Source of the DNA: Eubacteriales bacterium
GTDB lineage: Bacteria; Bacillota; Clostridia; Oscillospirales; CAG-272
Direction of reading: 5' to 3'
Length of the DNA stretch: 34,094 bases
Assembly: GCA_045121195.1 (NCBI GenBank)
Contig: JBGVFO010000174.1
Coordinates: forward strand, 1 to 34,094
Shown: one piece after another, positions 8,425 through 20,085 of the stretch
Layout of the letters: every line of letters starts with the position of its first letter
Numbering within the stretch: position 1 is the stretch's first letter
Translations under genes and position numbers: made by a program
The notes under the pieces: generated by a model
What the model was told of the DNA's origin: nothing
Database searches by the model: none
Seen by the model: only the letters and a program-made list of their open reading frames with translations

Positions 8425-8509
8425 GCGGGCGTGGCGGAATTGGCAGACGCGCCAGACTTAGGATCTGGTGGTTTTCACCGTGGGGGTTCAAGTCCCTTCG
8501 CCCGCACCA
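8425..8509 (+). tRNA. tRNA-Leu (anticodon UAG), CCA encoded
   Basis: Acceptor GCGGGCG/CGCCCGC-A-CCA, D-loop GGAATTGGCAGA, anticodon arm CCAGA-CTTAGGA-TCTGG, long variable arm, GGTTCAAGTCC T-arm. Confidence 0.97.
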
Positions 8510-8682: not shown

Positions 8683-9039
8683 ATGAAAAACGAAATTACT
8701 TATACCGAACATAACGGACTTTACTACCCAGATCTTGCACTCCCCGAGCAGACGAGTTTCACTCTTGGTAAGTATGCAAACCTGCGCCTTGACTTTATAA
8801 AAAAGCATTGTCGCGGAACTTACACCACCCTGCTCACCGAAGGACGATTAAACGAACACCTACACGCCATTGATATTCATGCTCACAAATTGCTCGATGA
8901 CATAATTCCTCGCCTCGCCAAAGAACGTGGCGTAGACGAAGTTCTGAAGGCTCACAACGCGCTTCGGTGGACTGTCGAGATGAACAACATCAAAGCAAGT
9001 GCAGAAGAAATCGTTCTCAAGGAGGTCGTCTACAAATGA
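8683..9039 (+). CDS. tnpV: TnpV family protein
   Basis: ITY...GLYYPDL, LGKYA.LR..F, YTTLL..GRLNEHL..ID, MNNIKASAEEIVLKEVVY typical of TnpV. Confidence 0.9.
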   Translation: MKNEITYTEHNGLYYPDLALPEQTSFTLGKYANLRLDFIKKHCRGTYTTLLTEGRLNEHLHAIDIHAHKLLDDIIPRLAKERGVDEVLKAHNALRWTVEMNNIKASAEEIVLKEVVYK

Positions 9040-9302
9040 GAGCTATTCTTGAAGAATTATTTTACGGCAACATCTGCCCCAACACCGATTGCAGAAGTCA
9101 CGATAAAGAAACGAAGCAGTTAATGGGATACATAGCCGATCATCACGATAACCTACTCTCCACGCTAAATGATCGGCAAAAGGAAATTCTTGAAAAGTTC
9201 GATGATTGCTATAACGAGCTGACCGATATCAACGAGCGCGAGATCTTTGTGTATGCGTTCAAGTTTGGGATGAGAATAGCAATAGAGGTATTAACCGAGT
9301 AA
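9036..9302 (+). CDS. Small conserved hypothetical protein (DUF6809-like)
   Basis: ILEELFYGNI.P...F..AFKFG.RI..E pattern; ATGA overlap with tnpV stop and GGAGG RBS. Confidence 0.7.
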   Translation: MRAILEELFYGNICPNTDCRSHDKETKQLMGYIADHHDNLLSTLNDRQKEILEKFDDCYNELTDINEREIFVYAFKFGMRIAIEVLTE

Positions 9303-9369
9303 CTACATTGTTAGGCATACAGATTGCAATTTGCGTCTGTATGCCTTTTTATATTAGCGCACACAAAAT

Positions 9370-9421
9370 CCTACAAAAACCTACAAATATACTTGAAAAA
9401 CAACCCCAAATATGTTATAAT
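9370..9421 (+). promoter_or_regulatory. Sigma-A promoter with upstream direct repeats
   Basis: TTGAAA 9393-9398, 17 bp, TGnTATAAT (-10 at 9416-9421); CCTACAAA repeated at 9370 and 9380. Confidence 0.7.
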
Positions 9422-9457
9422 ATTAACTGTAAGATTATATTTTCGGGAGATAAAGAA

Positions 9458-9652
9458 ATGTCTAACAATATTGATTTGTCTGATCGCTGGTATTCCACCA
9501 AAGAAATTTGCGCTTATCTTGGAATTAGCCGCGACACTTTGCTTGTGTGGATTGCAAGCAAAAATATGCCCGCACACAAAGTAGGGCGAAATTGGAAGTT
9601 CAAGGTTAGCGAAGTGGATGAATGGATTAAAAGCGGCAAGGCAGCTGAGTAA
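9458..9652 (+). CDS. Excisionase-family helix-turn-helix DNA-binding protein
   Basis: RWYSTKEICAYLGISRDTL..WI....MPAHKVGRNWKFKVSEVDEWIKSG; GGGAG RBS. Confidence 0.9.
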   Translation: MSNNIDLSDRWYSTKEICAYLGISRDTLLVWIASKNMPAHKVGRNWKFKVSEVDEWIKSGKAAE

Positions 9653-9676
9653 AACGCTGAAAAAGGAAAAGACAGA

Positions 9677-10696
9677 ATGAACATAACATTTTTAATTGGC
9701 AATGGTTTCGATCTTAATTTAGGTCTTCGCACAAGGTATACAGATTTTTATAAGTATTATATGAAGAATAACCCAAACGATTTAATTTCAAAATCAATCT
9801 CAAAAGACTATGAATTGTGGGCTGATTTGGAAATTGGTTTAGGCGCTTTCTTGGAGAAAATCGATGAAACTCAAATAGAGGAATTTCTTGATAGTAAGCG
9901 GAATTTGGAAAAAATGCTTTCTGAATATTTAACTTTGCAAAATCAAAGAATTTCTCTTCCAAACGAGTCGGCAATTGCTGAGGAATTCAAAAAGAAAACA
10001 ACAGGCTTCTTTGATGATTTTAATGCTTCTGACAAAGATGATTATAAAAAAGCAGTTGCAAATATTCGCGAAACTATAAATTATTCATTTATAACTTTCA
10101 ACTATACCGACGTTCTTGATAAGATAATTCTTGCAGCACAACAAAAATGCAAACCTTTCGGTAACCATACGTCTGGTGGTACAGGTCACAATGATGCCGT
10201 GAAATCTGCGCACCATGTTCACGGTAAATTGACCGAAGATTTAATTTTGGGATTAGATAATAAAGATCAAATAATGAACGAGAAGTTGAAAAATAATCCT
10301 CGCTTAACAAATTACATAATTAAGTCTACAGTTAATAAGGCGTTAGGGGAAAGAAAAACAGAAATTGCCAAAGATATTATTGACAAGAGTAGATATATTT
10401 GCCTTTTTGGACTTTCAATTGGGGATACTGATGCTTTATGGTGGACATATATTATTCAATGGTTAAACAAGAGCGCCGAAAACAGATTGGTTTTGTTCGT
10501 TAATGAAAATACAATGGTACAACTTTCGGGACAGGAAAAGATTCGATTTAGAGATGCCAAAAGATCGAATATGTTGGATCGAAGCAAATGTACCGATACT
10601 AAGATTATGGAAACTGTTCAAGATAGGATAATTGTGGTTCCTAATTCCAAAATCTTTACTTTTGAGGACATTGTAGTAGAGAATGAAGTTGAGTGA
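9677..10696 (+). CDS. AbiH family (SIR2-like) abortive infection protein
   Basis: FLIGNGFDLNLG.RT.Y.DF, WADLE..LG, ITFNYT, HVHG, FGLSIGDTD motifs. Confidence 0.85.
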   Translation: MNITFLIGNGFDLNLGLRTRYTDFYKYYMKNNPNDLISKSISKDYELWADLEIGLGAFLEKIDETQIEEFLDSKRNLEKMLSEYLTLQNQRISLPNESAIAEEFKKKTTGFFDDFNASDKDDYKKAVANIRETINYSFITFNYTDVLDKIILAAQQKCKPFGNHTSGGTGHNDAVKSAHHVHGKLTEDLILGLDNKDQIMNEKLKNNPRLTNYIIKSTVNKALGERKTEIAKDIIDKSRYICLFGLSIGDTDALWWTYIIQWLNKSAENRLVLFVNENTMVQLSGQEKIRFRDAKRSNMLDRSKCTDTKIMETVQDRIIVVPNSKIFTFEDIVVENEVE

Positions 10697-10768
10697 ATCT
10701 AAAAAGATCATTGTGTTAATTTTTGAGCCAAAATCAATATGCTACTTGCGTAATTATAAGGATTTACT

Positions 10769-12658
10769 ATGACAGAAAAGAAATATATAACTGAAAACGC
10801 CGAGTTGATGAGGGAATGGGATTGGGGACAAAATAATGCGATTGGGCTTGATCCTCAAAAACTTTCTATCGGATCTCAAAAAGTTGCTTTTTGGATTTGT
10901 TCAACTCATGGAACAAAATTCAAACAAGCAATACGTGCAAGAGAACGGGGGCAAAGAGGATGCCCAGAATGTTTGAATGAATGGAAAAATTCTATAAGTC
11001 GAAAAAGGTATATTGATGGAAAAAAGGTTTTAGCCGAAACTCATCCAAATTTAGTTACAGAATGGGTTAGTTGTGATAACCCCAAATTCACTCCATATAC
11101 TTGCGTAGCTGGTTCAAATATAAAAGTGAAATGGAAATGTCAAAAGTGTGGCGGTGAATATGATGCATATATTGTTAATCGCACAAAGCAAGGTTCATCT
11201 TGTCCTTATTGTGCAAATCAAAAGGTGCTTATAGGATACAATGATTTGCAATCACAAATTCCCGCTTTGGCTGCCGAATGGAGCAATAAAAATACTATAA
11301 AACCGACCGAGGTCACAGCACACTCAAAAAAAGAATTTTATTGGATTTGTCCGCTGGGACATGATGATTATCCCATGTCTGTCAAGCGACGTAGCAATAG
11401 ACAAGGTTGCCCTGTTTGCGCTCAGCAAAGCCAAACCTCTTTTCCCGAGCAAGCTATTTACTATTATCTTAAACAAGTGTTTCCTGACACATTAAATAGG
11501 TACATATCGGATAAACGTGAAATCGATATATTTATTCCATCGAAAAACATCGGATTTGAATATAATGGATATTTTTCGCACAAGAAGAAAGCGGAAAAGG
11601 ATGCCGCCAAAAAGACTTTCTTTCATTCGGTCGGCGTAACTTTATTTATCATCAAAGAATACAAAACAGAAGAAGAAAGAGACAATGCGGATTATTATAT
11701 TCACGAAAGAACGACTTTCAAGAATTTAAATAATTTGATTAGAAAAATTCTTTTGGATTTAAATGTTGAAACGTCGGTTGATGTTGATTGCGAAAGAGAT
11801 GCTATTGCAATTAAAAATCAATATGTTATCTTGCGTAAAGAAAATAGTATCGCTGCTGTCCGTCCAGATTTAGTTGTGTTTTGGGATTACGAGAAAAACG
11901 GCTCAATAACGCCTGAAATGGTCACGCTTGGAACAGGTCAACGCTTCTATTGGAAATGTCGGATTTGTAACAGTTCTTATTTAAATTGGCCGAGCAGAAT
12001 AGCACAAGGAAGCGTATGCTCAAAGCATCGCAATCTCGTAAAGAAAGGTATAAATGATTTAGCAACACTACACCCAGAATTACTAAAATATTGGGACTAT
12101 GATAAAAACGATGTTGATCCGTCAGAAATATATGGTGGCGGAGAACGAGTAGTATATTGGAAATGCGAGAAAGGACATAGCTATCCGAAATCTATTTTAA
12201 AGCATGTGCGTGGTGAGGGATGTCCTATCTGTGCCGGTAAAAAGGTATTGGCAGGGTTTAATGATCTTCTGTCTCAAAACCCAGAACTCGCTAAAGAATG
12301 GGATTACGAACTTAATGACTGCCAGCCGGATCAAATTCACTATAATAGTCAGTCAAAAAAAGTTCATTGGATTTGCTCTGTGTGTGGTCATAGGTGGCAA
12401 TACAAAGTAAGTAACAGAAATAATTGTCCTGAATGCGAAAAAAAGAAAAAACAAATCAATGTGTATGATGCTGTTGATTTAACTTTTATAGGAACATTCG
12501 ATGATATCAAGGCATTATGCGAATATTTGGGGCTGAATTACAAAAAGCAACACGGAAATATTTCTTCAGCTTGCGGTCGAAAGCAGAAAACATTAATGGG
12601 AAAGTACATCTTACGTCACGCCAATGATGATGAATATGAAAATAAAACACAGCGTTAA
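10769..12658 (+). CDS. Multi zinc-ribbon repeat protein with central restriction-endonuclease-like domain
   Basis: Repeats of P.L..EW...KN...P......S...WxC...GH...GCPxC; central TSFPEQ...EIDIFIP..IGFEYNG..H. Confidence 0.8.
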   Translation: MTEKKYITENAELMREWDWGQNNAIGLDPQKLSIGSQKVAFWICSTHGTKFKQAIRARERGQRGCPECLNEWKNSISRKRYIDGKKVLAETHPNLVTEWVSCDNPKFTPYTCVAGSNIKVKWKCQKCGGEYDAYIVNRTKQGSSCPYCANQKVLIGYNDLQSQIPALAAEWSNKNTIKPTEVTAHSKKEFYWICPLGHDDYPMSVKRRSNRQGCPVCAQQSQTSFPEQAIYYYLKQVFPDTLNRYISDKREIDIFIPSKNIGFEYNGYFSHKKKAEKDAAKKTFFHSVGVTLFIIKEYKTEEERDNADYYIHERTTFKNLNNLIRKILLDLNVETSVDVDCERDAIAIKNQYVILRKENSIAAVRPDLVVFWDYEKNGSITPEMVTLGTGQRFYWKCRICNSSYLNWPSRIAQGSVCSKHRNLVKKGINDLATLHPELLKYWDYDKNDVDPSEIYGGGERVVYWKCEKGHSYPKSILKHVRGEGCPICAGKKVLAGFNDLLSQNPELAKEWDYELNDCQPDQIHYNSQSKKVHWICSVCGHRWQYKVSNRNNCPECEKKKKQINVYDAVDLTFIGTFDDIKALCEYLGLNYKKQHGNISSACGRKQKTLMGKYILRHANDDEYENKTQR

Positions 12659-12680
12659 TTGTAAATGGAGGTAGGAAAAA

Positions 12681-13727
12681 ATGTTCTTCTTCGAACAACA
12701 AAAGTGGAAAAAAGTTGAGTATTCTCGAAGCAAAATTATTAAGTCGGGAAAAATAATCAAAGATACTTCCGCAACAGAAGATCAAATCAAAGAGGCTACT
12801 GCCGTGATTGATAATTGGCGAGCCGCACATGCATACCCCCTTCACGTGATTTACACTCATTTACGAAGAATGGCAAGTAATAGACCAAACATAATCGTTG
12901 CTGAACGATTGAAACGATTAGATTCAATTATTAACAAGTTAAAGCGCGAGCCCTCTATGAGCTTGTGGACTATGCAAGATTTGGGCGGGTGTAGATATAT
13001 CGTTCCTAAAATTAAAGATGTGTATGGAAGTGCAAATCAATACGAATCCTCACGAAAAAGGCATTTGAAAGTGGATGAATACGATTATATTGAGCATCCT
13101 AAAACATCCGGATATAGAAGTTATCATGTTGTTTATGAATATAAAAGTGATGTCAATGATACATACAACAAAAACATGATGGTTGAGATCCAATTTAGAA
13201 CTCACTTGCAGCACGTTTGGGCAACGGCGGTTGAAACAATGGGCTTATTCACAAAGCAAGCAATAAAATCGGGGCAAGGCTCCGATGATGTCAAGAGATT
13301 CTTTGCTTTAGTATCATCTTTGTTTGCGATTAAAGAGAACTGTCCTTTGGTTCCGGGAACTCCTACTGACATTGACGAAATTGTATCAGAGATTGAGGAA
13401 ATCAACAGTCGGTGCAATTATATAGATATGTTAAGTGCCATTCGTGTTGCGGTAGATGACCAAGATAACAAACACTTTCAACAACAAGGATATTATATTT
13501 TGATATTGAATTATAATACCCGTATGCTAAAAGTAAAACACTTTAAGCCGAGTCAACTTGAAGCAGCTACTGAAATATATCAAAGCATAGAGAGAACACG
13601 TGCAGAATCTAAAATTGATGCAGTTTTGGTACGTGTTGATTCCTTCAAGACATTGAAGTCGGCTTATCCAAACTACTTTTCTGATATTGGAGAATTTATC
13701 AGCTTGGTGAAATCATATCTTTCGTAA
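12681..13727 (+). CDS. RelA/SpoT-domain toxSAS with C-terminal antitoxin-like region (CapRel-like)
   Basis: NWRAAHAYP, RLKRLDSI..KL, QDLGGCR, GYRSYH, EIQFRT..QH.WATAVE, C-terminal AYPNYF.D (YxxY). Confidence 0.8.
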   Translation: MFFFEQQKWKKVEYSRSKIIKSGKIIKDTSATEDQIKEATAVIDNWRAAHAYPLHVIYTHLRRMASNRPNIIVAERLKRLDSIINKLKREPSMSLWTMQDLGGCRYIVPKIKDVYGSANQYESSRKRHLKVDEYDYIEHPKTSGYRSYHVVYEYKSDVNDTYNKNMMVEIQFRTHLQHVWATAVETMGLFTKQAIKSGQGSDDVKRFFALVSSLFAIKENCPLVPGTPTDIDEIVSEIEEINSRCNYIDMLSAIRVAVDDQDNKHFQQQGYYILILNYNTRMLKVKHFKPSQLEAATEIYQSIERTRAESKIDAVLVRVDSFKTLKSAYPNYFSDIGEFISLVKSYLS

Positions 13728-13751
13728 TAATTTGGCGACATATTTGGCAAT

Positions 13752-13803
13752 AAAGCCGTTATCAAAGCGTGATTGACACGCCGCGATAGCGGCCTTTCCT
13801 TTC
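13752..13803 (+). terminator. Probable terminator of defence operon
   Basis: GCCGTTATC..GCGTG / CACGC..GATAGCGGC stem followed by pyrimidine tract. Confidence 0.55.
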
Positions 13804-13823
13804 TAAAAATTTCGTAAAGCCTA

Positions 13824-13874
13824 TTGACAAAATTTCATTCGTATGCTATAATTACTACGCGGTACAAATGTACC
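13824..13874 (+). promoter_or_regulatory. Consensus sigma-A promoter with downstream palindromic operator
   Basis: TTGACA 13824-13829, 17 bp, TGcTATAAT 13844-13852; GGTACA-aa-TGTACC at 13861-13874. Confidence 0.85.
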
Positions 13875-13895
13875 TCGAATAAAACGGAGGCATTT

Positions 13896-14501
13896 ATGAA
13901 TAAGTGGAGTCCCGAGAGGGCGGAGGCGATCCGCCAATTTATAGACGACTATTTCATGGAGAACCGCAAGTCTCCGACGGTGCGCGACATTGCGGCAGGT
14001 ACGGGTATCTCCAAGACCTCGGTGCAGAGATACCTCACCGATATGAAAGAGCACGGAGAGATCGAATACAACGGTCGACGCAGCATCGGAACAAATCTTT
14101 CTCGAAATATGTTTGAAACTACGCCCGCGATTCGATACGATTCCACCGTGTCATGCGGGTTGCCGAGTGAACCGAACGTGGAAGAAGCAGACATCATTCC
14201 ACTCCCTACCGCGCTTGTTGGTGACGGAAAGTTTTTCATACTTACTGCTAAAGGTGACTCAATGACGGGCATTGGAGTTGACGATGGCGATCTCGTTATC
14301 GTGCGCGAGCAGAACACTTGCAAGGACGGAGACTATGCTGTTGTCCTTGTAAACGGAACTGAAACGCTGCTCAAAACGATAACCTATCTTCCCGATAAGA
14401 AAGCATATTTGCTTCACGCTGAAAATCCCGATTACGATGATCGTATTGAGCGCAACGTGCAGATTCAAGGAATTGCTACACAAGTTATAAAGAAACTTTG
14501 A
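13896..14501 (+). CDS. LexA-like repressor (winged HTH + S24 peptidase)
   Basis: SPTVRDIAAGTGIS HTH, VSCG cleavage site, GDSM Ser, TLLK Lys; GGAGG RBS before ATG 13896. Confidence 0.88.
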   Translation: MNKWSPERAEAIRQFIDDYFMENRKSPTVRDIAAGTGISKTSVQRYLTDMKEHGEIEYNGRRSIGTNLSRNMFETTPAIRYDSTVSCGLPSEPNVEEADIIPLPTALVGDGKFFILTAKGDSMTGIGVDDGDLVIVREQNTCKDGDYAVVLVNGTETLLKTITYLPDKKAYLLHAENPDYDDRIERNVQIQGIATQVIKKL

Positions 14502-14514
14502 CAACTCTCTGCTT

Positions 14515-14870
14515 GTCTATCAGTCTTAGCAAGCACTGCTTTTGGATATCCAAAAGCCATTCTTGCTAATATGTCCGTTGGTCTTAGCAAGCATCGCGTT
14601 TGTCATGACAAACGGTCCAACGGTCTCAGCAAGCATCGCCGTTGTGTCCCAAATCCCAACGGAAACAAAAAAATGTATTCAATGTGTCTGCTTGTCTTAG
14701 CAAGCATCGCGGTTGGACGCCCAAAGCCAACCGAAAGAAAATACATCAGTCGCAGCAAGCACTGCCTTTGTGTACCAAAGCTGTCTGTCAGTCTTAGCAA
14801 GCACTGGATTTGGGCGTCCAAATCCGTCTATTAGTCGCAGCAAGCACTGCTTTTGTCATGACAGACAAAA
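14515..14870 (-). repeat. Array of 7 units: variable inverted repeat + conserved core (candidate oriT-mimic array)
   Basis: + strand core GTC(T/G)(T/C)AGCAAGCA(CT/TC)G at 14523, 14581, 14623, 14694, 14749, 14791, 14834, each followed at fixed distance by TTG-N5/6-CA(A/G)A inside a hairpin. Confidence 0.9.
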
Positions 14871-14890
14871 CCTTAGGAGGTAAATGTAAT

Positions 14891-15214
14891 TTGAAGGTCA
14901 AAGAAATGTTAAATAGAATGATCGACATTCTCAAAGATAAGCACACCACGTGGGTTTATTTAGAGCTTCCACAAATTAACGTTGAAGCACTGCGCAAAAG
15001 AATCATTGCGATTCTAAAGGACAAGCACGGTGGTGCGAATATGGGATTGGATATCCCCGATGATGAAATCGAAGCTCTCGCTGATGTGCTCCTTCCCGGT
15101 GTTATAAAATTCTTCTCCTCTGATGAATGGCGCGCGGAGCTTGACGCGTGGAGGAAAGAGCAAGAATTATTAGCGCAGAATAAGATTCAAGCTGCCGAAA
15201 ATAAAGTATCTTAA
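14891..15214 (+). CDS. Small hypothetical protein upstream of recombinase, with internal duplication
   Basis: AGGAGG at 14875-14880, TTG start (ATG 14906 alternative); ILKDKH...L..P....EAL occurs twice. Confidence 0.65.
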   Translation: MKVKEMLNRMIDILKDKHTTWVYLELPQINVEALRKRIIAILKDKHGGANMGLDIPDDEIEALADVLLPGVIKFFSSDEWRAELDAWRKEQELLAQNKIQAAENKVS

Positions 15215-15246
15215 TCCTCACGTTATCGTGACAGAAAGGAGAGTCA

Positions 15247-16725
15247 ATGACAGGAGTAATATACGCTCGATATTCCTCGGACAATCAGCGAGAGGAATCG
15301 ATTGAAGGTCAGCTCCGTGAATGTCAAGCCTTCGCCAAGAAGAATGACATCACCCTGCTTGAACCTTATATAGACCGCGCCCTATCGGCAAAGACAGACA
15401 ACCGCCCGAACTTTCAAAAGATGATCAAAGATAGCGCGGCGAAAAAGTTTGACATTGTTATAGTTTGGAAGTTGGATAGATTTGCCCGCAATCGTTTCGA
15501 TTCGGCACACTACAAAAGTGTTCTCCGCAAGAATGGCGTGAAGGTCGTATCCGCAACCGAAGCGATCTCCGAAGGCGCAGAAGGTATCCTTCTTGAATCA
15601 ATGCTCGAAGGTATGGCTGAATACTACTCTGCTGAGCTCTCTGAGAAAGTGGTACGAGGTCTGACCGAAAACGCGCTCAAATGCAAATACAATGGCGGTA
15701 CACTTCCCATCGGATATACAGTTGATGAAAATCAATTCTTCCAAGTTGATCCCGTCACCGCACCTGCTGTTCTTGATGCGTTCAAGAAATACGCCAAGGG
15801 CGCAACGATGCAAGAGATCACCGACGAGCTAAATATCAAAGGTATTCGCACAGTCAGAGGAACGAAGATTAGCCTTAACACCGTGACAAGAATGCTACAC
15901 AACCGCCGATACATAGGTGAGTATCAATATCGTGATGTGGTTGTTCCCAACGGAATCCCCGCTATCGTTCCTGCTAAGTTGTTCGAACAAGTCCAAGAGA
16001 GAGCCGCCGCAAACAAGAAGGCTCCCGCCAAGCACAAAGCCGAGGACGAGTATCTGCTGACAACAAAACTGTTCTGCGGTTATTGTAAGTGTCTGATTAC
16101 GGGAGAAAGCGGAACGAGTCATACGATGGAAGTCCATCGCTATTACAAATGCCGAGGAACTCGTAAGGGTGGAACGTGTAAGAAGAAAACCATCAAGAAG
16201 AAATGGATCGAAGAAGTAGTGATTCTGCTCATTCAGAAGTTCATCTTTGACGATGAATTGCTCGACAGACTTGCAGATATGCTGATCGCCAAGCTCAATG
16301 CCGAGAGCAGCACGCTCCCGATTCTTCGCAAGCAGCTTGATGAAATCGAAAAAGGCATTGACAATCTTGTCAACGCCATTCAAGCGGGAATTCTCACCGC
16401 ATCAACCAAGCAACGTCTTGAGCAACTCGAAGCCGAAAAGAGCGAGATCTCGGTGCAGATTCTCAAAGAAGAAATTGCTAAACCCACGGTTACAAAAGAC
16501 GATATACTCGCGTATCTTATCAAGTACCGCAAGCTTAATATGAAACAGCTTGACCACCGCCGCCGTCTGATCGATAGCTTCGTCAATGCGATCTATCTGT
16601 TCGACGACTACTTGGTCATTGCATTCAACTATAAGGAAGGCACAAAAACAATCACCTTTGCCGAAATTGAGGAGGCATTTGGTTCGGATTTATCATCACT
16701 CACTGCACCAAATAAGGAACAGTAG
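15247..16725 (+). CDS. Large serine recombinase (resolvase + recombinase + Zn-ribbon + coiled coil)
   Basis: IYARYSS catalytic Ser, DRALSAK...RPNFQKMI, KLDRFARNR, YLLTTKLFCGYC, YYKC; C-terminus runs through attR. Confidence 0.96.
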   Translation: MTGVIYARYSSDNQREESIEGQLRECQAFAKKNDITLLEPYIDRALSAKTDNRPNFQKMIKDSAAKKFDIVIVWKLDRFARNRFDSAHYKSVLRKNGVKVVSATEAISEGAEGILLESMLEGMAEYYSAELSEKVVRGLTENALKCKYNGGTLPIGYTVDENQFFQVDPVTAPAVLDAFKKYAKGATMQEITDELNIKGIRTVRGTKISLNTVTRMLHNRRYIGEYQYRDVVVPNGIPAIVPAKLFEQVQERAAANKKAPAKHKAEDEYLLTTKLFCGYCKCLITGESGTSHTMEVHRYYKCRGTRKGGTCKKKTIKKKWIEEVVILLIQKFIFDDELLDRLADMLIAKLNAESSTLPILRKQLDEIEKGIDNLVNAIQAGILTASTKQRLEQLEAEKSEISVQILKEEIAKPTVTKDDILAYLIKYRKLNMKQLDHRRRLIDSFVNAIYLFDDYLVIAFNYKEGTKTITFAEIEEAFGSDLSSLTAPNKEQ

Positions 16726-16757
16726 ATTGATACAATCGTATCGACCTACTGTTTTTT
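16718..16757 (+). terminator. Intrinsic terminator just beyond attR
   Basis: AACAGTAG-a-TTGATAC-aatc-GTATCGA-c-CTACTGTT then T-tract. Confidence 0.75.
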
Positions 16758-17087
16758 ATTTCACCGTCAGGTGAAATGTTTTATCGTTAAAAATTAGCCG
16801 AAAGTCCTTGATTTACAAGCGCTTTTTTGTTTTCGTGGTGCATTTCGGTATATGTGGTGCCTATATCTTGTGTCTCGGACGTCCTAAAATGCAGAAAAGC
16901 ACTACTCCCCGTCAAGGTGTAGTGCCTTCCTATCGTTAAAAGACCGCTATTCGTTAAATTACTGATTTTAATGGAAAGATTTATAAAAATTCTTTTGTTT
17001 CTTATTGACATCGCATAAAAAGTGTGATGTGCTGTTAGCAAAGGAGCGAACAAGCGAACAGCTATCGCTTTTTAAGGAGGTACGACT

Positions 17088-17459
17088 ATGAATTTCGGAG
17101 AATTTATTAAGCAAAAACGCACGGAAAAAGGGTTGAATCTTCGTAAGCTTGCAGAACTGATGGATATCGCTCCCGCCTATTTAAGCGATATTGAAAAAGG
17201 CAAACGCAACTCTCCTTCACCGGAGAAAATGTCAAAGCTTGCAGAACTGCTGGAACTGACCGAAGAAGAGGTTCTTTTGATGAATGACCTTGCAGCAGAG
17301 GCTCGCACTAATACCGTTGCTCCAGACATTTCTGAATACGTAATGAGCAATGGCTCCGTACGCATTGCGCTCCGCAAAGCCAGAGAACTCAATCTCGGTG
17401 ACAAAGAGTGGATGCAAATTATTGAATCTATGACAAAGGATGAAACAGAAGGTACTTAA
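17088..17459 (+). CDS. XRE-family HTH regulator
   Basis: FGEFIKQKR..KGLNLRKLA....IAPAYLSDIEKGKR; AAGGAGG RBS. Confidence 0.92.
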   Translation: MNFGEFIKQKRTEKGLNLRKLAELMDIAPAYLSDIEKGKRNSPSPEKMSKLAELLELTEEEVLLMNDLAAEARTNTVAPDISEYVMSNGSVRIALRKARELNLGDKEWMQIIESMTKDETEGT

Positions 17460-18149
17460 ATGATCTACACCAAGGAAAAACTTGAAGAATTAGCCGATTC
17501 CATAAACAAAGAATATTTTCCCGCAAGGCTTACTTCTGCAAGCCCTTTGGATTGTTACGACCTTTTGGACGCATTAGGATGTGAGGTTGAATGGAAGTAC
17601 ATTTCCCCCGACGATAGCATTCTTGGTGCCACATTTTTCGATGACGGTTATTGGTATATATGGCCCGATGGAACTTTTCATAAAGGTGATATGTTTACTA
17701 CTGAATATTTTCCCAAAGGCACTATTCTTATCAATCAACGTGTTCTGGATTCAAAGGCAAAAACTGCTCGTGGAAGCGAGAATTTTATAGTCGGTCACGA
17801 ATGTGCGCATTGGATTAAAGACCAAGAATATTTTAGCAAACACGCTGCAAAAGATGTTTTCCACGTTTGCAAGAAAAATGACTTTGGTTCTACATGGTGG
17901 AATAATTCTATGAGCAAACTTGAAATAATTGAGCGTCAAACGAATTATCTCGACGCTGCCATCTTAATGCCACGTGATGTGATTCGATCTGAATTTTTTA
18001 GAATTTCTCGTTATAAAAACATTCCAAACCAACCGCTCGAATTCAAAAATTATATGAAGAAATGGATTGCCGTGCTTTCGCAGAAGTTCGGAGTAAACTT
18101 CAACCCGGTAAAATACCGTCTTCAAGATTTAGGAATCATATCGAGGTGA
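17460..18149 (+). CDS. ImmA/IrrE family metallo-endopeptidase
   Basis: ENFIVGHECAHW (HExxH), E.QTNY..AAILMP, LSQKFGV...V.YRL..LG; coupled to XRE gene. Confidence 0.88.
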   Translation: MIYTKEKLEELADSINKEYFPARLTSASPLDCYDLLDALGCEVEWKYISPDDSILGATFFDDGYWYIWPDGTFHKGDMFTTEYFPKGTILINQRVLDSKAKTARGSENFIVGHECAHWIKDQEYFSKHAAKDVFHVCKKNDFGSTWWNNSMSKLEIIERQTNYLDAAILMPRDVIRSEFFRISRYKNIPNQPLEFKNYMKKWIAVLSQKFGVNFNPVKYRLQDLGIISR

Positions 18150-18338
18150 GCAATTTTATCAAAAGGGGTGATGCTTATAATTTTGTATGCGGCATAAGAA
18201 ACTGCTACCAACGGTGACTTATGCATTTCGGAAAACTGAATATTCAGGGGATATAAGAGTTCTTCAGTAAGCCGTTGTATTCTTATCCCCTACCTTTACT
18301 ACTATTTTAAATTTTTCAGAAAGGTAGGTGAATAACCT

Positions 18339-19025
18339 ATGATTAAAGGTCTCACAGAGTTTGAGAAGTATAAGGTTATTCGTCCTGTCATCGGGGATTG
18401 CGAATATGACAAATACGGTTTCCCCTTGATTCGGCGTTTAACTCGCAATTTGGATTACGAAAAATTAGAGGTTCGTAATTTCAAGTGTATGAAATCGTTG
18501 GCTGACAATGACAACAAGCTGTTGATGATGTTCTGCTACGACAAAGATTTACTGCGTTTTTGGAATGACCCATTGAAGCGAATTCCTACTATGCAAACAT
18601 ATGCCGCCGTGGCTACTCCCGATTTCAGCATTTATCCCACAATGAATATCAATGAAATTCGTCATAATATTTATATAGGCAGATGGTTGGGGCGCACGTG
18701 GTAAAATTACGGCTTGTCCGTAATACCTACAATCGGTTGGGCGTCGCCCGATACTTACGATATGTGCTTTAGTGCCATAGAAAATGGAACTCCCGTAATC
18801 ATATCTACCTTGGGGTGTACTGATTACCAAGAAGATTTTTTGCGAGGCTTTAACCAAATGAAGGCGCGTATCAATCCGCCTATCATAATAGTGTTCGGCA
18901 ATATGATACAAAGGATGACAGGAACATTCCTGAATTTCAAGTATACCGAGTCCTTTGCTGTAAAAAACAAGCAGTTGAAAATTGAGGGGATTCCTTCAAT
19001 GTTCACGATAAAGGAGGCGGTATAA
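18339..19025 (+). pseudogene. DUF4417 family protein interrupted by an in-frame TAA at 18702-18704
   Basis: F.YD..L.RFWNDP, TPDFSIY..M, NIY..RWLG.TW*NYGLSVIPTIGW continue in the same frame across the stop. Confidence 0.8.
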
Positions 19026-19414
19026 TGGGTTCTCGTGGCGCATTTGTTGATGTCAACACCGGAAATTTTAGTTTTGTGCAAGGTGGGCAACATTATATGT
19101 CATTGGGGTCTTTAAGTAGCAATCCCAACGTCAAAGTTATCATTCAAGATTCCAATGCGGTGAAAGCTCCCGAATACTCTCATACCCCAGGAAGAATCTA
19201 TGCCGTTGTTAAAAATGGCGAGCTGAAGCATCTCGCATATTATGACGAAGCTCATAAACAAGCGGTAAGCATTGACCTTGCGCACGACCATAAAGGAGTG
19301 CAACCGCATCGTCATGTTTATCTCAGTCACAATAAAAACGACCCTGGCATTCCCCCAACGCCAGAAGAATCTGCTTTAATAAAAAAGATAAAGAAGGAGT
19401 TTCATTTACGATGA
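19025..19414 (+). CDS. MGSRG-leader protein with His-rich nuclease-like C-terminus (candidate toxin)
   Basis: N-terminus MGSRGA, C-terminal SIDLAHDHKGVQPHRH; AGGAGG RBS, overlaps upstream stop. Confidence 0.6.
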   Translation: MGSRGAFVDVNTGNFSFVQGGQHYMSLGSLSSNPNVKVIIQDSNAVKAPEYSHTPGRIYAVVKNGELKHLAYYDEAHKQAVSIDLAHDHKGVQPHRHVYLSHNKNDPGIPPTPEESALIKKIKKEFHLR

Positions 19415-19758
19415 GAAAAAACGAATTTAATTCCCTTGAAGAGTTTACATCACAATATATCGGTGTTTGGGGGCCTTCGGACGGTCATTGGTTTGGCTTG
19501 GATTTTTCTTATAACGGCACAGAATATAGATTTAACACAGGGTCTATATATGAAAAGCAGGATACCATTTTACCTAACGGCAAAGAGGCTCTCTTCGGTA
19601 TCTATCGTAAAGACAGCAATCCTAAAACAAAAAAGAAGTATATTTTGCTTGAGGAATTTGCTGATATGGAGGATGCCTTAAATAGCACGTGTATTGAGGG
19701 TGTTGCTTTTAGAGAAGTAATAATGGATGACAATACCGAGATCTTAGGACAAGATTAA
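19411..19758 (+). CDS. Small acidic hypothetical protein (candidate immunity protein)
   Basis: ATGA overlap with preceding gene, AAGGAG RBS, 115 aa. Confidence 0.65.
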   Translation: MRKNEFNSLEEFTSQYIGVWGPSDGHWFGLDFSYNGTEYRFNTGSIYEKQDTILPNGKEALFGIYRKDSNPKTKKKYILLEEFADMEDALNSTCIEGVAFREVIMDDNTEILGQD

Positions 19759-19829
19759 AAAAAGCCCGGCAAGTGCTACCAACACTTATCGGGCGACTTT
19801 CAAAGGATATAAGAATCCTTCAGTAAGCA
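19757..19829 (-). ncRNA. Putative ~72-nt small antisense RNA
   Basis: Minus-strand TTGATT (19862-19857), 16 bp, TGaTATAAT (19840-19835); two hairpins, the second GCCCGATAAGTG-TTGGTAG-CACTTGCCGGGC followed by a U-tract. Confidence 0.6.
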
Positions 19830-19977
19830 CTATCATTATATCATATTTTGCAAAAAAATCAATAGCTTTCGTGTAAAAAAGACGAAAGAATTACTGATTT
19901 TTCTGCATTTATGCTCTTGAGATGATATTTCAAGGTAAAAAGAAAGAGTCGGCTATATTAGTCGGCTCTTTCGTTAT

Positions 19978-20085
19978 TTATATCATCACCGTCTCTTGGC
20001 TGCCGTTGCGGAAGGTGAACACAAGCCGTCCGTCACCCAAGACGATGATTCGGTCAACAGTGACGCGGAATCGGTCATCTGTCTT
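19978..20085 (-). pseudogene. C-terminal remnant of a serine recombinase
   Basis: Manual translation KTDDRFRVTVDRIIVLGDGRLVFTFRNGSQETVMI*, resembling the final beta-strands of large serine recombinases; no start codon or upstream frame. Confidence 0.6.

Follow-up and report, generated by a model that had tools for sequence, protein, structure and literature searches.

A predicted convergent small RNA with two co-varying complementarities to the leader of a mobile DUF4417 operon

Can an operon of three protein-coding genes be controlled by a small RNA (sRNA) that is read back from its own 3' end? The question is raised by a stretch of 34,094 nucleotides (nt) from an Eubacteriales bacterium (contig JBGVFO010000174.1 of assembly GCA_045121195.1), referred to here as the window, in which a structured leader of about 190 nt lies between the gene for an M78 peptidase-like protein and an operon encoding a DUF4417 protein and proteins of 129 and 115 amino acids (aa). 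An earlier note on this DNA had claimed that a small minus-strand RNA encoded downstream of this operon pairs with the leader at two sites and represses the operon. In our reading the window probably holds a copy of a mobile module whose convergent sRNA of about 70 nt represses its own operon by way of the leader, following the logic of the par/Fst systems. The two-site antisense part of this reading, according to which a loop and the 5' arm of the sRNA would contact the leader, is well supported by sequence comparison, which covers both complementarities and the way they have co-evolved, as well as conservation of the promoter, terminator and hairpins of the sRNA; production of the sRNA, its action as a repressor and not as an activator, and the mechanism of this action are our inference.

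The direct repeat and the predicted small RNA gene

The 24-mers at positions 18249-18272 and 19805-19828 of the window differ at two positions, and a degenerate pattern made from them finds just these two sites in 34 kb and matches in 0 of 100 shuffled sequences. The full direct repeat is longer and comprises 30 nt, 26 of which are identical between the two copies, which are spaced 1556 nt apart. At each of the four differing positions the leader copy has G or T and the downstream copy A or C, so that all four differences would form G.U pairs in a duplex of the plus-strand leader with the minus-strand sRNA. When the 5' end of the sRNA was cofolded with the leader, all 30 nt paired without a gap. 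In a null test comparing upstream with downstream flanks, the window scored 24.0, 35 related loci without the repeat reached at most 16, and the reverse-complement control at most 13.5.

A second similarity accompanies the repeat. The 10-mer TGCTACCAAC occurs exactly twice in the window (18203-18212 and 19774-19783) and is by itself not significant, as two or more matches with one mismatch allowed were obtained in 33 of 100 shuffles. Folding with RNAfold places both copies in hairpin loops, one in leader hairpin 1 and the other in the hairpin at the operon end, and the order of loop motif and repeat is identical at the upstream and downstream sites. The 7-nt leader loop CUACCAA is complementary to the loop UUGGUAG of the predicted sRNA terminator. 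The sRNA is complementary to the leader at two collinear sites because its gene repeats the 5' part of the leader in the same orientation and in diverged form, but is used on the opposite strand; as the downstream copy is read backwards, the 3' loop and the 5' arm of the sRNA can pair with the loop and the repeat of the leader in one antiparallel arrangement.

The sRNA promoter has 10 of 12 consensus matches and is tied best among the 10 sites found in a scan of 4 kb. On the minus strand, the terminator hairpin (-18 kcal/mol by RNAfold) is followed by U7, which corresponds to A7 at 19757-19763 on the plus strand; a terminator scan of the same 4 kb missed this hairpin because of an internal mismatch in its stem. 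On the plus-strand side the hairpin is followed only by TTT and by no U-run, and the single hairpin physically ends both the operon and the sRNA transcription units. Thus the 22 of 24 matches, the hairpin positions of the loop motif, the minus-strand promoter and terminator of a predicted RNA of about 72 nt, and the conversion of both mismatches into G-U pairs, all of which the earlier note had proposed, were borne out, and the repeat proved to be unique in the 34 kb and longer than described.

No gathering-score match to Rfam 15 was obtained in the window or in 18 related loci, and a search of positions 18100-19950 at E up to 10 returned noise only. No description of this RNA was found in Rfam 15 or in a limited literature search, and one could still have been published. 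Near the sRNA gene, an inverted repeat (16 nt, 88%) at 19849-19907 overlaps the promoter -35, and a terminator-like plus-strand hairpin is located at 19942-19972 at the edge of a genomic island; weak Rfam microRNA matches at these two places were rejected as noise.

Co-variation of leader and small RNA in related loci

A scan of one genome per species yielded 79 related loci (L001-L079) from Bacillota, Saccharibacteria, Succinivibrionaceae, Bacteroidota, Spirochaetota, a Planctomycetia metagenome-assembled genome and others. The genes for DUF4417, the 129-aa and the 115-aa protein follow each other in the same order in 52 of the 79, and the proteins of this cassette are 44-99% identical across the set. 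As a direct blastn comparison of leader and sRNA with the loci found the five closest relatives only, the repeat was searched for locus by locus in the 52 loci, comparing the 230-260 nt upstream of DUF4417 with the rest of the locus on both strands. A direct repeat was detected in 15 of these loci and in the window, with scores of 23.5-31.5, and the downstream copy is always located directly 3' of the last cassette gene. In L029 (4735-5094), and at the same place in L030, an additional open reading frame (ORF) of 119 aa without Pfam family stands between the 115-aa gene and the sRNA and shifts the downstream repeat to +418. The earlier note had named conservation of both copies around homologous operons as a check, and both copies are indeed conserved and co-vary in this subset.

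A covariance model of the sRNA, R1, gives the window a score of 88.3 bits and finds three further sRNAs (L014, L035 and L068); in all three loci the region upstream, where the leader would lie, is truncated or rearranged. Searching with a leader profile gave matches to the 16 sRNA-bearing loci only, and no such leader was found without an sRNA. The homologue in L068 (158-227, minus strand, 60.2 bits, with promoter) lies downstream of a different, cysteine-rich gene and about 3 kb from the cassette of that locus, its target leader being beyond the start of the locus.

The sRNA gene itself shows the marks of a conserved RNA. A minus-strand promoter with 9-12 of 12 matches occurs at the same offset in all 16 loci and would give RNAs of 65-73 nt. 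The consensus structure consists of a 5' stem-loop and the terminator stem-loop, with 94.7% of cells paired compared to 41-59% when the register was slid. Compensatory changes were found in 13 of its 18 pairs, and its covariation score of 0.68 contrasts with 0.09-0.26 for the slid controls and was reached by none of 500 shuffles. In the terminator hairpin 11 of 13 stem pairs display compensatory changes, as do 8 of 8 consensus pairs of leader hairpin 1, whose register is broken in the Saccharibacteria loci.

Co-variation between leader and sRNA was analyzed in 10 non-redundant loci from 5 sequence clades over a core of 28 columns. The repeat sequence varies between clades yet matches within each locus: in the core, 272 of 275 cells pair, whereas sliding the register by 1-3 columns reduces pairing to 39-53%, and combining leaders and sRNAs from different clades gives 78% on average. 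Both sides have changed in about 20 core columns, and pairing drops to background right outside the core. The loop motif varies in step at both sites (CTGCCA in L019, CTGCCAA in L032, CTACCAA in L034, a close relative of L032, and CTACCGG in Saccharibacteria loci). Cognate duplexes have energies of -37 to -52 kcal/mol and duplexes across clades of -12 to -36 kcal/mol. These results strongly support the proposal, deduced from sequence, that a small minus-strand RNA pairs with the leader at two sites.

The differences between the copies carry a direction. Among them are 32 transitions compatible with G.U pairing, none of the A.C type and 3 transversions; counted as distinct column events, the ratio is 13 to 0. 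Such an exclusive bias towards G.U is expected only if plus-strand RNA is made from the upstream copy and minus-strand RNA from the downstream copy. In agreement with such roles, the internal hairpin of the upstream copy is more stable on the plus strand and that of the downstream copy on the minus strand, each in 10 of 10 loci.

Both strand asymmetries are what RNA pairing predicts and what sites acting at the DNA level would not be expected to show. It might be argued that the repeats are recombination sites bounding the cassette, or operators for the XRE-type regulator at both ends, as they bracket a mobile three-gene cassette and as the downstream copy contains an 18-bp palindrome, AAGGAT-N6-ATCCTT, of the kind bound by helix-turn-helix (HTH) dimers. 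Such sites predict no strand asymmetry, yet all 32 transitions are compatible with G.U, and for each copy the hairpin holds only on the strand predicted to be transcribed. In addition, the downstream copy is flanked by a promoter and a terminator with compensatory stem changes, and recombination would homogenise the copies, the fixed differences of which persist across clades. We therefore regard a DNA-level role as very improbable. Still less credit is due to the idea that the repeat is an old duplication of the leader without function. The sRNA gene does look as if it had arisen by duplication of the 5' leader part and later divergence, the motifs following each other in the same order, but the flanks have diverged beyond recognition between clades while the two sites are still matched in every locus, and the co-variation contradicts this idea.

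Table 1. Positions of the predicted RNA elements and of the genes of the module in the window
Feature	Position	Strand	Description and basis
Predicted antisense sRNA, 72 nt	19757..19828	-	5' arm with stem-loop 1, then terminator stem-loop (loop UUGGUAG), U7 tail
sRNA promoter	19835..19862	-	TTGATT, 16-nt spacer, TATAAT preceded by TG; sigma-70-like
Upstream repeat copy	18243..18272	+	Proposed pairing partner of the sRNA 5' arm in the leader (interaction site 2); repeat comparison, cofold, covariation
Downstream repeat copy	19799..19828	-	Template of the predicted sRNA 5' arm; repeat comparison
Leader hairpin 1	18192..18224	+	RNAfold; 7-nt loop CUACCAA at 18205-18211, proposed interaction site 1
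Hairpin common to operon end and sRNA	19764..19794	.	Minus-strand terminator; loop motif at 19774-19783
Proposed switch segment	18280..18297	+	Pairs with 18247-18259 or, via CCCCTACCTTT, with the Shine-Dalgarno region; inverted repeat and folds
Shine-Dalgarno region of the DUF4417 gene	18320..18331	+	AAAGGTAGGTGA; read from the sequence; sequestered in predicted folds
XRE-type HTH regulator, CapH-like	17088..17459	+	Pfam HTH_3, E 4e-14; PADLOC capH, E 1e-11
ImmA/IrrE (Peptidase_M78)-like protein, CapP-like	17460..18149	+	Pfam M78, E 6e-4 (below cut-off); PADLOC capP, E 2.6e-7
DUF4417 gene, 228 aa	18339..19025	+	Two pieces, 18339-18704 and 18714-19025; Pfam PF14386 matches both
129-aa protein	19025..19414	+	Mostly beta, very conserved, sub-threshold Ntox24-like; homologues, Pfam, AF2
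115-aa protein	19411..19758	+	Candidate antitoxin or immunity protein; follows the 129-aa gene in most loci

Leader folding and the proposed mode of action

The repeat ends 65 nt upstream of the ATG of DUF4417 in the window and 30-71 nt upstream in the other loci, and any effect on the Shine-Dalgarno region must therefore be indirect. Within the leader, the 5' half of the repeat (18247-18259) has a partner at 18280-18290, and an inverted repeat connects an anti-Shine-Dalgarno segment at 18286-18297 with the Shine-Dalgarno region (Table 1). In each clade inspected, the 5' half of the leader repeat is likewise complementary to a downstream leader segment that carries an anti-Shine-Dalgarno sequence. 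Based on these elements, we propose the following course of events. A kissing contact between the loops UUGGUAG and CUACCAA would nucleate binding, and the sRNA 5' arm of about 30 nt would then zip up with the leader repeat and displace the latter from its own leader partner. The anti-Shine-Dalgarno sequence of the freed partner would close over the ribosome-binding site, so that DUF4417 would not be made, and probably neither would the products of the genes behind it, to which its translation is coupled. In addition, RNase III might cleave the 30-bp duplex.

When the repeat was blocked in a local fold of the leader, accessibility of the Shine-Dalgarno region became lower in 9 of 10 loci; the single unchanged locus is L038, in which the block was shortened by a mismatch. 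To this extent the claim of repression made in the earlier note agrees with the folds.

Other observations weigh against it or limit its reach. In a longer leader of about 165 nt, accessibility upon blocking was mixed in the same number of loci (4 down, 2 unchanged, 4 up). In the clade of the window the Shine-Dalgarno region is largely paired even without the sRNA (free 0.17-0.45), and hence sRNA binding would bring a modest gain there. The minus-strand RNA of about 72 nt is a prediction from sequence. Upstream of the leader no convincing plus-strand promoter was found (6-10 of 12 matches at varying positions), and the leader may therefore be intercistronic and part of a longer transcript. The operon mRNA may also read into the sRNA gene and thereby add a cis-antisense component, some overlap of this kind being likely as there is no U-run on the plus side of the common hairpin. 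Furthermore, the repeat is absent from 37 of the 52 scanned loci, in which scores are at most 20 over the whole locus on either strand, and nothing else was found in these 37 loci that could serve the leader as an antisense partner. Finally, in a cassette tree built from DUF4417 and the 129-aa protein (50 rows, leaving out DUF4417 shorter than 200 aa or 129-aa homologues shorter than 115 aa, as in L019), the sRNA-bearing rows form two clades, for which two or possibly one origin suffices; accordingly, the co-variation has been contributed by few lineages, though deeply diverged ones. Gene conversion between the copies could add to their matching, but not to the G.U bias.

The mixed result with the longer leader and the sequestered Shine-Dalgarno region of the window clade are also what would be expected if the sRNA paired as described but activated or stabilized the operon mRNA, by opening an inhibitory fold or by protection from RNase. 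We consider activation unlikely, given that accessibility in the local model moves in the opposite direction in nearly all loci, that the segment freed by the sRNA carries an anti-Shine-Dalgarno sequence in every clade inspected, and that the closest known architecture, par, is described as repressive in a review (PMC7472228).

Alternatively, the main site of action might be the 3' end of the operon, where the sRNA would work in cis by convergent transcription and by pairing with read-through transcripts, the leader copy being secondary or a decoy. Read-through past the common hairpin would provide a fully complementary target, and in a search of the whole window the best targets of the sRNA arm are its own antisense site (-63 kcal/mol), which forms the best duplex, and the leader. 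Cis complementarity, however, comes automatically, without any need for a second copy. The copy in the leader and the leader loop motif have nevertheless been kept and co-vary over 28 and 7 sharply bounded positions, and L029 and L030 retain the leader match despite the extra gene before the sRNA. A mainly cis-acting RNA thus has only a slight chance of being the right explanation, and repression through the leader is the reading followed below.

Some features of the leader stand apart from the pairing sites. A conserved block, AGGGGTGATGCTTATAATT, occupies 18166-18200 directly upstream of leader hairpin 1 and could be a -10 box whose -35 is poor, or else a Shine-Dalgarno sequence with a mini-ORF, for which an ATG at 18175 and a stop at 18199-18201 within the hairpin stem are available. 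A promoter-like sequence on the minus strand (18162..18135, TTGATA-16-TATGAT, 10 of 12) is aimed back into the M78 peptidase gene. Among loci without the sRNA, inspection of the 220 nt upstream of DUF4417 revealed at least two other long structured leader types, none of which matches Rfam (L006-L008, L011, L012, L017 and L020; and L009, L016, L058 and L061); one type contains a hairpin of 10-12 bp, GGATATGCTA...TAGCATATCC, similar to what the repeat would form when pairing in cis. The motif TTGTTAGAAAT(C/A)AGCGAACAAGC, which may represent operator sites, is repeated upstream of the cassette in some repeat-negative loci (L013, positions 2056 and 3227; leader of L045).

Cargo, genomic setting and known systems

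The order XRE regulator, M78 peptidase, leader, DUF4417, 129-aa protein and 115-aa protein recurs in many of the 79 loci. Among eight loci tested, the HTH gene was found at the same position in seven, and an M78 match reaching the cut-off at the homologous position in six. As the two regulator genes precede the cassette in repeat-positive and repeat-negative loci alike, the unit is best described as a five-gene mobile module, one lineage of which, as judged by sequence, carries a convergent sRNA of about 70 nt at its 3' end. The wide range of hosts points to very extensive spread of the cassette by horizontal transfer in gut and rumen communities. Many contigs with homologues of the 129-aa protein are just 1-3 kb long. 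Neither blastn with positions 18150-19900 nor tblastn with the 129-aa protein gave a match among plasmids; blastn of the same region against phages hit one unannotated contig, MT837061.1, which carries the five genes and no sRNA detectable with model R1.

The window contains a low-GC island that adjoins a tRNA gene (8425-8506); its GC is 0.34-0.47 (positions of about 9000 to 20000), compared with 0.50-0.61 on either side. The operon is located at its right-hand end, the five genes of the module being the last ones in it. Further genes of the island encode TnpV, DUF6809, an HTH_17 protein, AbiH, a LexA-like S24 protein, a large serine recombinase, a DUF4379 zinc-finger protein with six repeats and a RelA/SpoT-like protein that matches PADLOC PDC-S33 (E 8e-122). 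The island looks like an integrative element loaded with defence candidates.

The earlier note had spoken of a DUF4417/toxin operon. The first half of this name stands, as the two parts of the window's DUF4417 match the profile at positions 9-97 and 103-175 with 45.2 and 53.5 bits (gathering cut-off 28.9). They are separated by an in-frame TAA (18702-18704) at a codon that is Q (TWQNYG) in nearly all translated homologues and a stop in none; the window's DUF4417 thus has a nonsense mutation or a sequencing error, with leader and sRNA intact. In the literature found, DUF4417 is mentioned as nothing more than an annotation or a fusion partner of ParB-like domains that is enriched in phages. An AlphaFold2 (AF2) model of the protein from L003 (3315-3998; pLDDT 86.8) was compared with the Protein Data Bank (PDB) by Foldseek, and its best neighbours were tRNA-guanine transglycosylases (E about 0.02-0.07, probability up to 0.96, TM 0.40-0.45), a weak lead towards a base-exchange or TIM-barrel-like enzyme. 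Matches of DUF4417 to PPR had no significant stretch and were discarded.

The second half of the name is weakly founded. For the 129-aa protein 391 homologues were found, and among the 120 matches listed, identities are 74-96% and almost all have 129 aa, with several His and Tyr residues invariant. Ntox24 (PF15529) matches the window's protein with 16.5 bits (E 0.01), below the gathering score of 24, and 14 of 25 homologues, at best with E 2.9e-4. In the ESM Atlas only unnamed clusters were hit, with Ntox24 on 22% of one cluster (score 0.89). The AF2 model (pLDDT 80.9) consists mostly of beta strands with one C-terminal helix, and Foldseek found no fold match for it in the PDB (best E 0.5). 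Ntox24 is described as an all-beta domain with conserved Y, H and H that occurs in apparent toxin-antitoxin pairs and for which a role as RNase was suggested (Zhang et al., 2012, PMC3482391). For the present cargo "toxin" is a hypothetical label based on the sub-threshold match. The 115-aa protein has no Pfam, PADLOC, PHROG or NCBIfam match and no known relatives outside this module, and PDB sequence searches with all three operon proteins gave nothing usable. Predictions of a complex between the 129-aa and 115-aa proteins were discordant between runs (0.53, 0.00 and 0.01) and speak neither for nor against an interaction.

Streptococcus phage A25 (L082, NC_028697.1, 10704-11767) contains adjacent genes for DUF4417 and a homologue of the 129-aa protein (26%), directly upstream of the small terminase gene and with neither a 115-aa gene nor an sRNA, and other streptococcal phages also carry relatives of the 129-aa protein. 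These distant homologues indicate that the pair is derived from phages.

Among known systems, par of pAD1 and the Fst-Ldr loci come closest. As described in a review (PMC7472228), a target mRNA and a small RNA are transcribed convergently there across direct repeats, which gives them complementary 5' regions; they have a common terminator hairpin, the loops of which start the contact, and an intramolecular leader structure covers the Shine-Dalgarno sequence. The locus in the window shares the convergent layout across direct repeats, with the sRNA promoter on the minus strand, and, in predicted folds, a leader structure over the Shine-Dalgarno region. A single hairpin stands at the end of both units, with a U-run on the minus side only. 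It differs in that the target is a 1.5-kb operon for proteins of 228, 129 and 115 aa instead of an mRNA of about 230 nt for a 33-aa membrane peptide, that one repeat of about 30 nt is present instead of DRa and DRb, that the repeat ends upstream of the start codon whereas the par repeat covers it, and that the loop motif is also copied into a 5' leader hairpin. Between the repeats of the window there is no gene for a hydrophobic peptide of about 30 aa like Fst/Ldr, and no Rfam sequence or structure match was obtained. The architecture is thus of the par/Fst type, but the locus is not a member of that family. What the earlier note had called an unusual bracketing layout is unusual in its scale and in the second copy of the loop, whereas bracketing itself is the par/Fst principle.

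In SprA1/SprA1AS of Staphylococcus aureus, too, an sRNA encoded at the 3' end of its target acts on the 5' ribosome-binding region, but the target there is a small-peptide toxin of the Fst family.

The claimed likeness to ColE1 was confirmed in NC_001371.1, where RNA I (Rfam RF00106, 645-749, minus strand; found by the model at 73.8 bits) contains GTTGGTAGC twice, each time in a predicted hairpin loop. A 9-nt loop with its closing bases, GUUGGUAGC, is identical to these two loops of RNA I, and in both systems recognition would involve fully complementary 7-nt loops. RNA I differs in being encoded in cis, overlapping its target fully and controlling primer formation, and RF00106 has no match in 18100-19950 at E up to 10. 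We interpret the common GUUGGUAGC loop as a case of convergence on an efficient form of kissing loop rather than as demonstrated homology.

The neighbouring genes for an XRE-HTH protein and an M78 peptidase, placed beside a candidate effector operon, recall CapH/CapP, which regulate immune operons; the likeness consists of a profile match only. Here the pair is co-directional with the genes it would regulate, and a long leader and a predicted antisense RNA come after it; the abstracts found on CapH/CapP speak of no sRNA layer. Taken together, it is possible, and offered here tentatively, that the module is a doubly locked abortive-infection or addiction device, in which a CapH/CapP-like damage sensor would gate transcription and a par-like antisense RNA would gate translation of a phage-derived DUF4417, which might be a transglycosylase-like enzyme, and of an Ntox24-like RNase and its antitoxin. 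This would be the first RNA antitoxin of type-I style over a multi-gene protein operon, with a kissing loop that converged on that of ColE1 RNA I.

Repression of the operon by its convergent sRNA would not be a new principle of regulation. If it is true, however, the par design, in which direct repeats read in opposite directions are combined with a kissing loop at the terminator, is not confined to tiny peptide-toxin loci but extends in scale to entire protein operons carried by mobile elements. In that case, control by XRE/M78 proteins (CapH/CapP type) over cargo that may serve in defence or as toxins would receive an additional RNA layer. As cognate duplexes are far stronger than those across clades, the loci would offer a natural set of orthogonal sRNA/leader pairs. 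The sRNAs would form a new family with unusually clean intermolecular co-variation at 28 and 7 positions, and this family includes members from Saccharibacteria, in which regulatory RNAs are, to our knowledge, little characterised.

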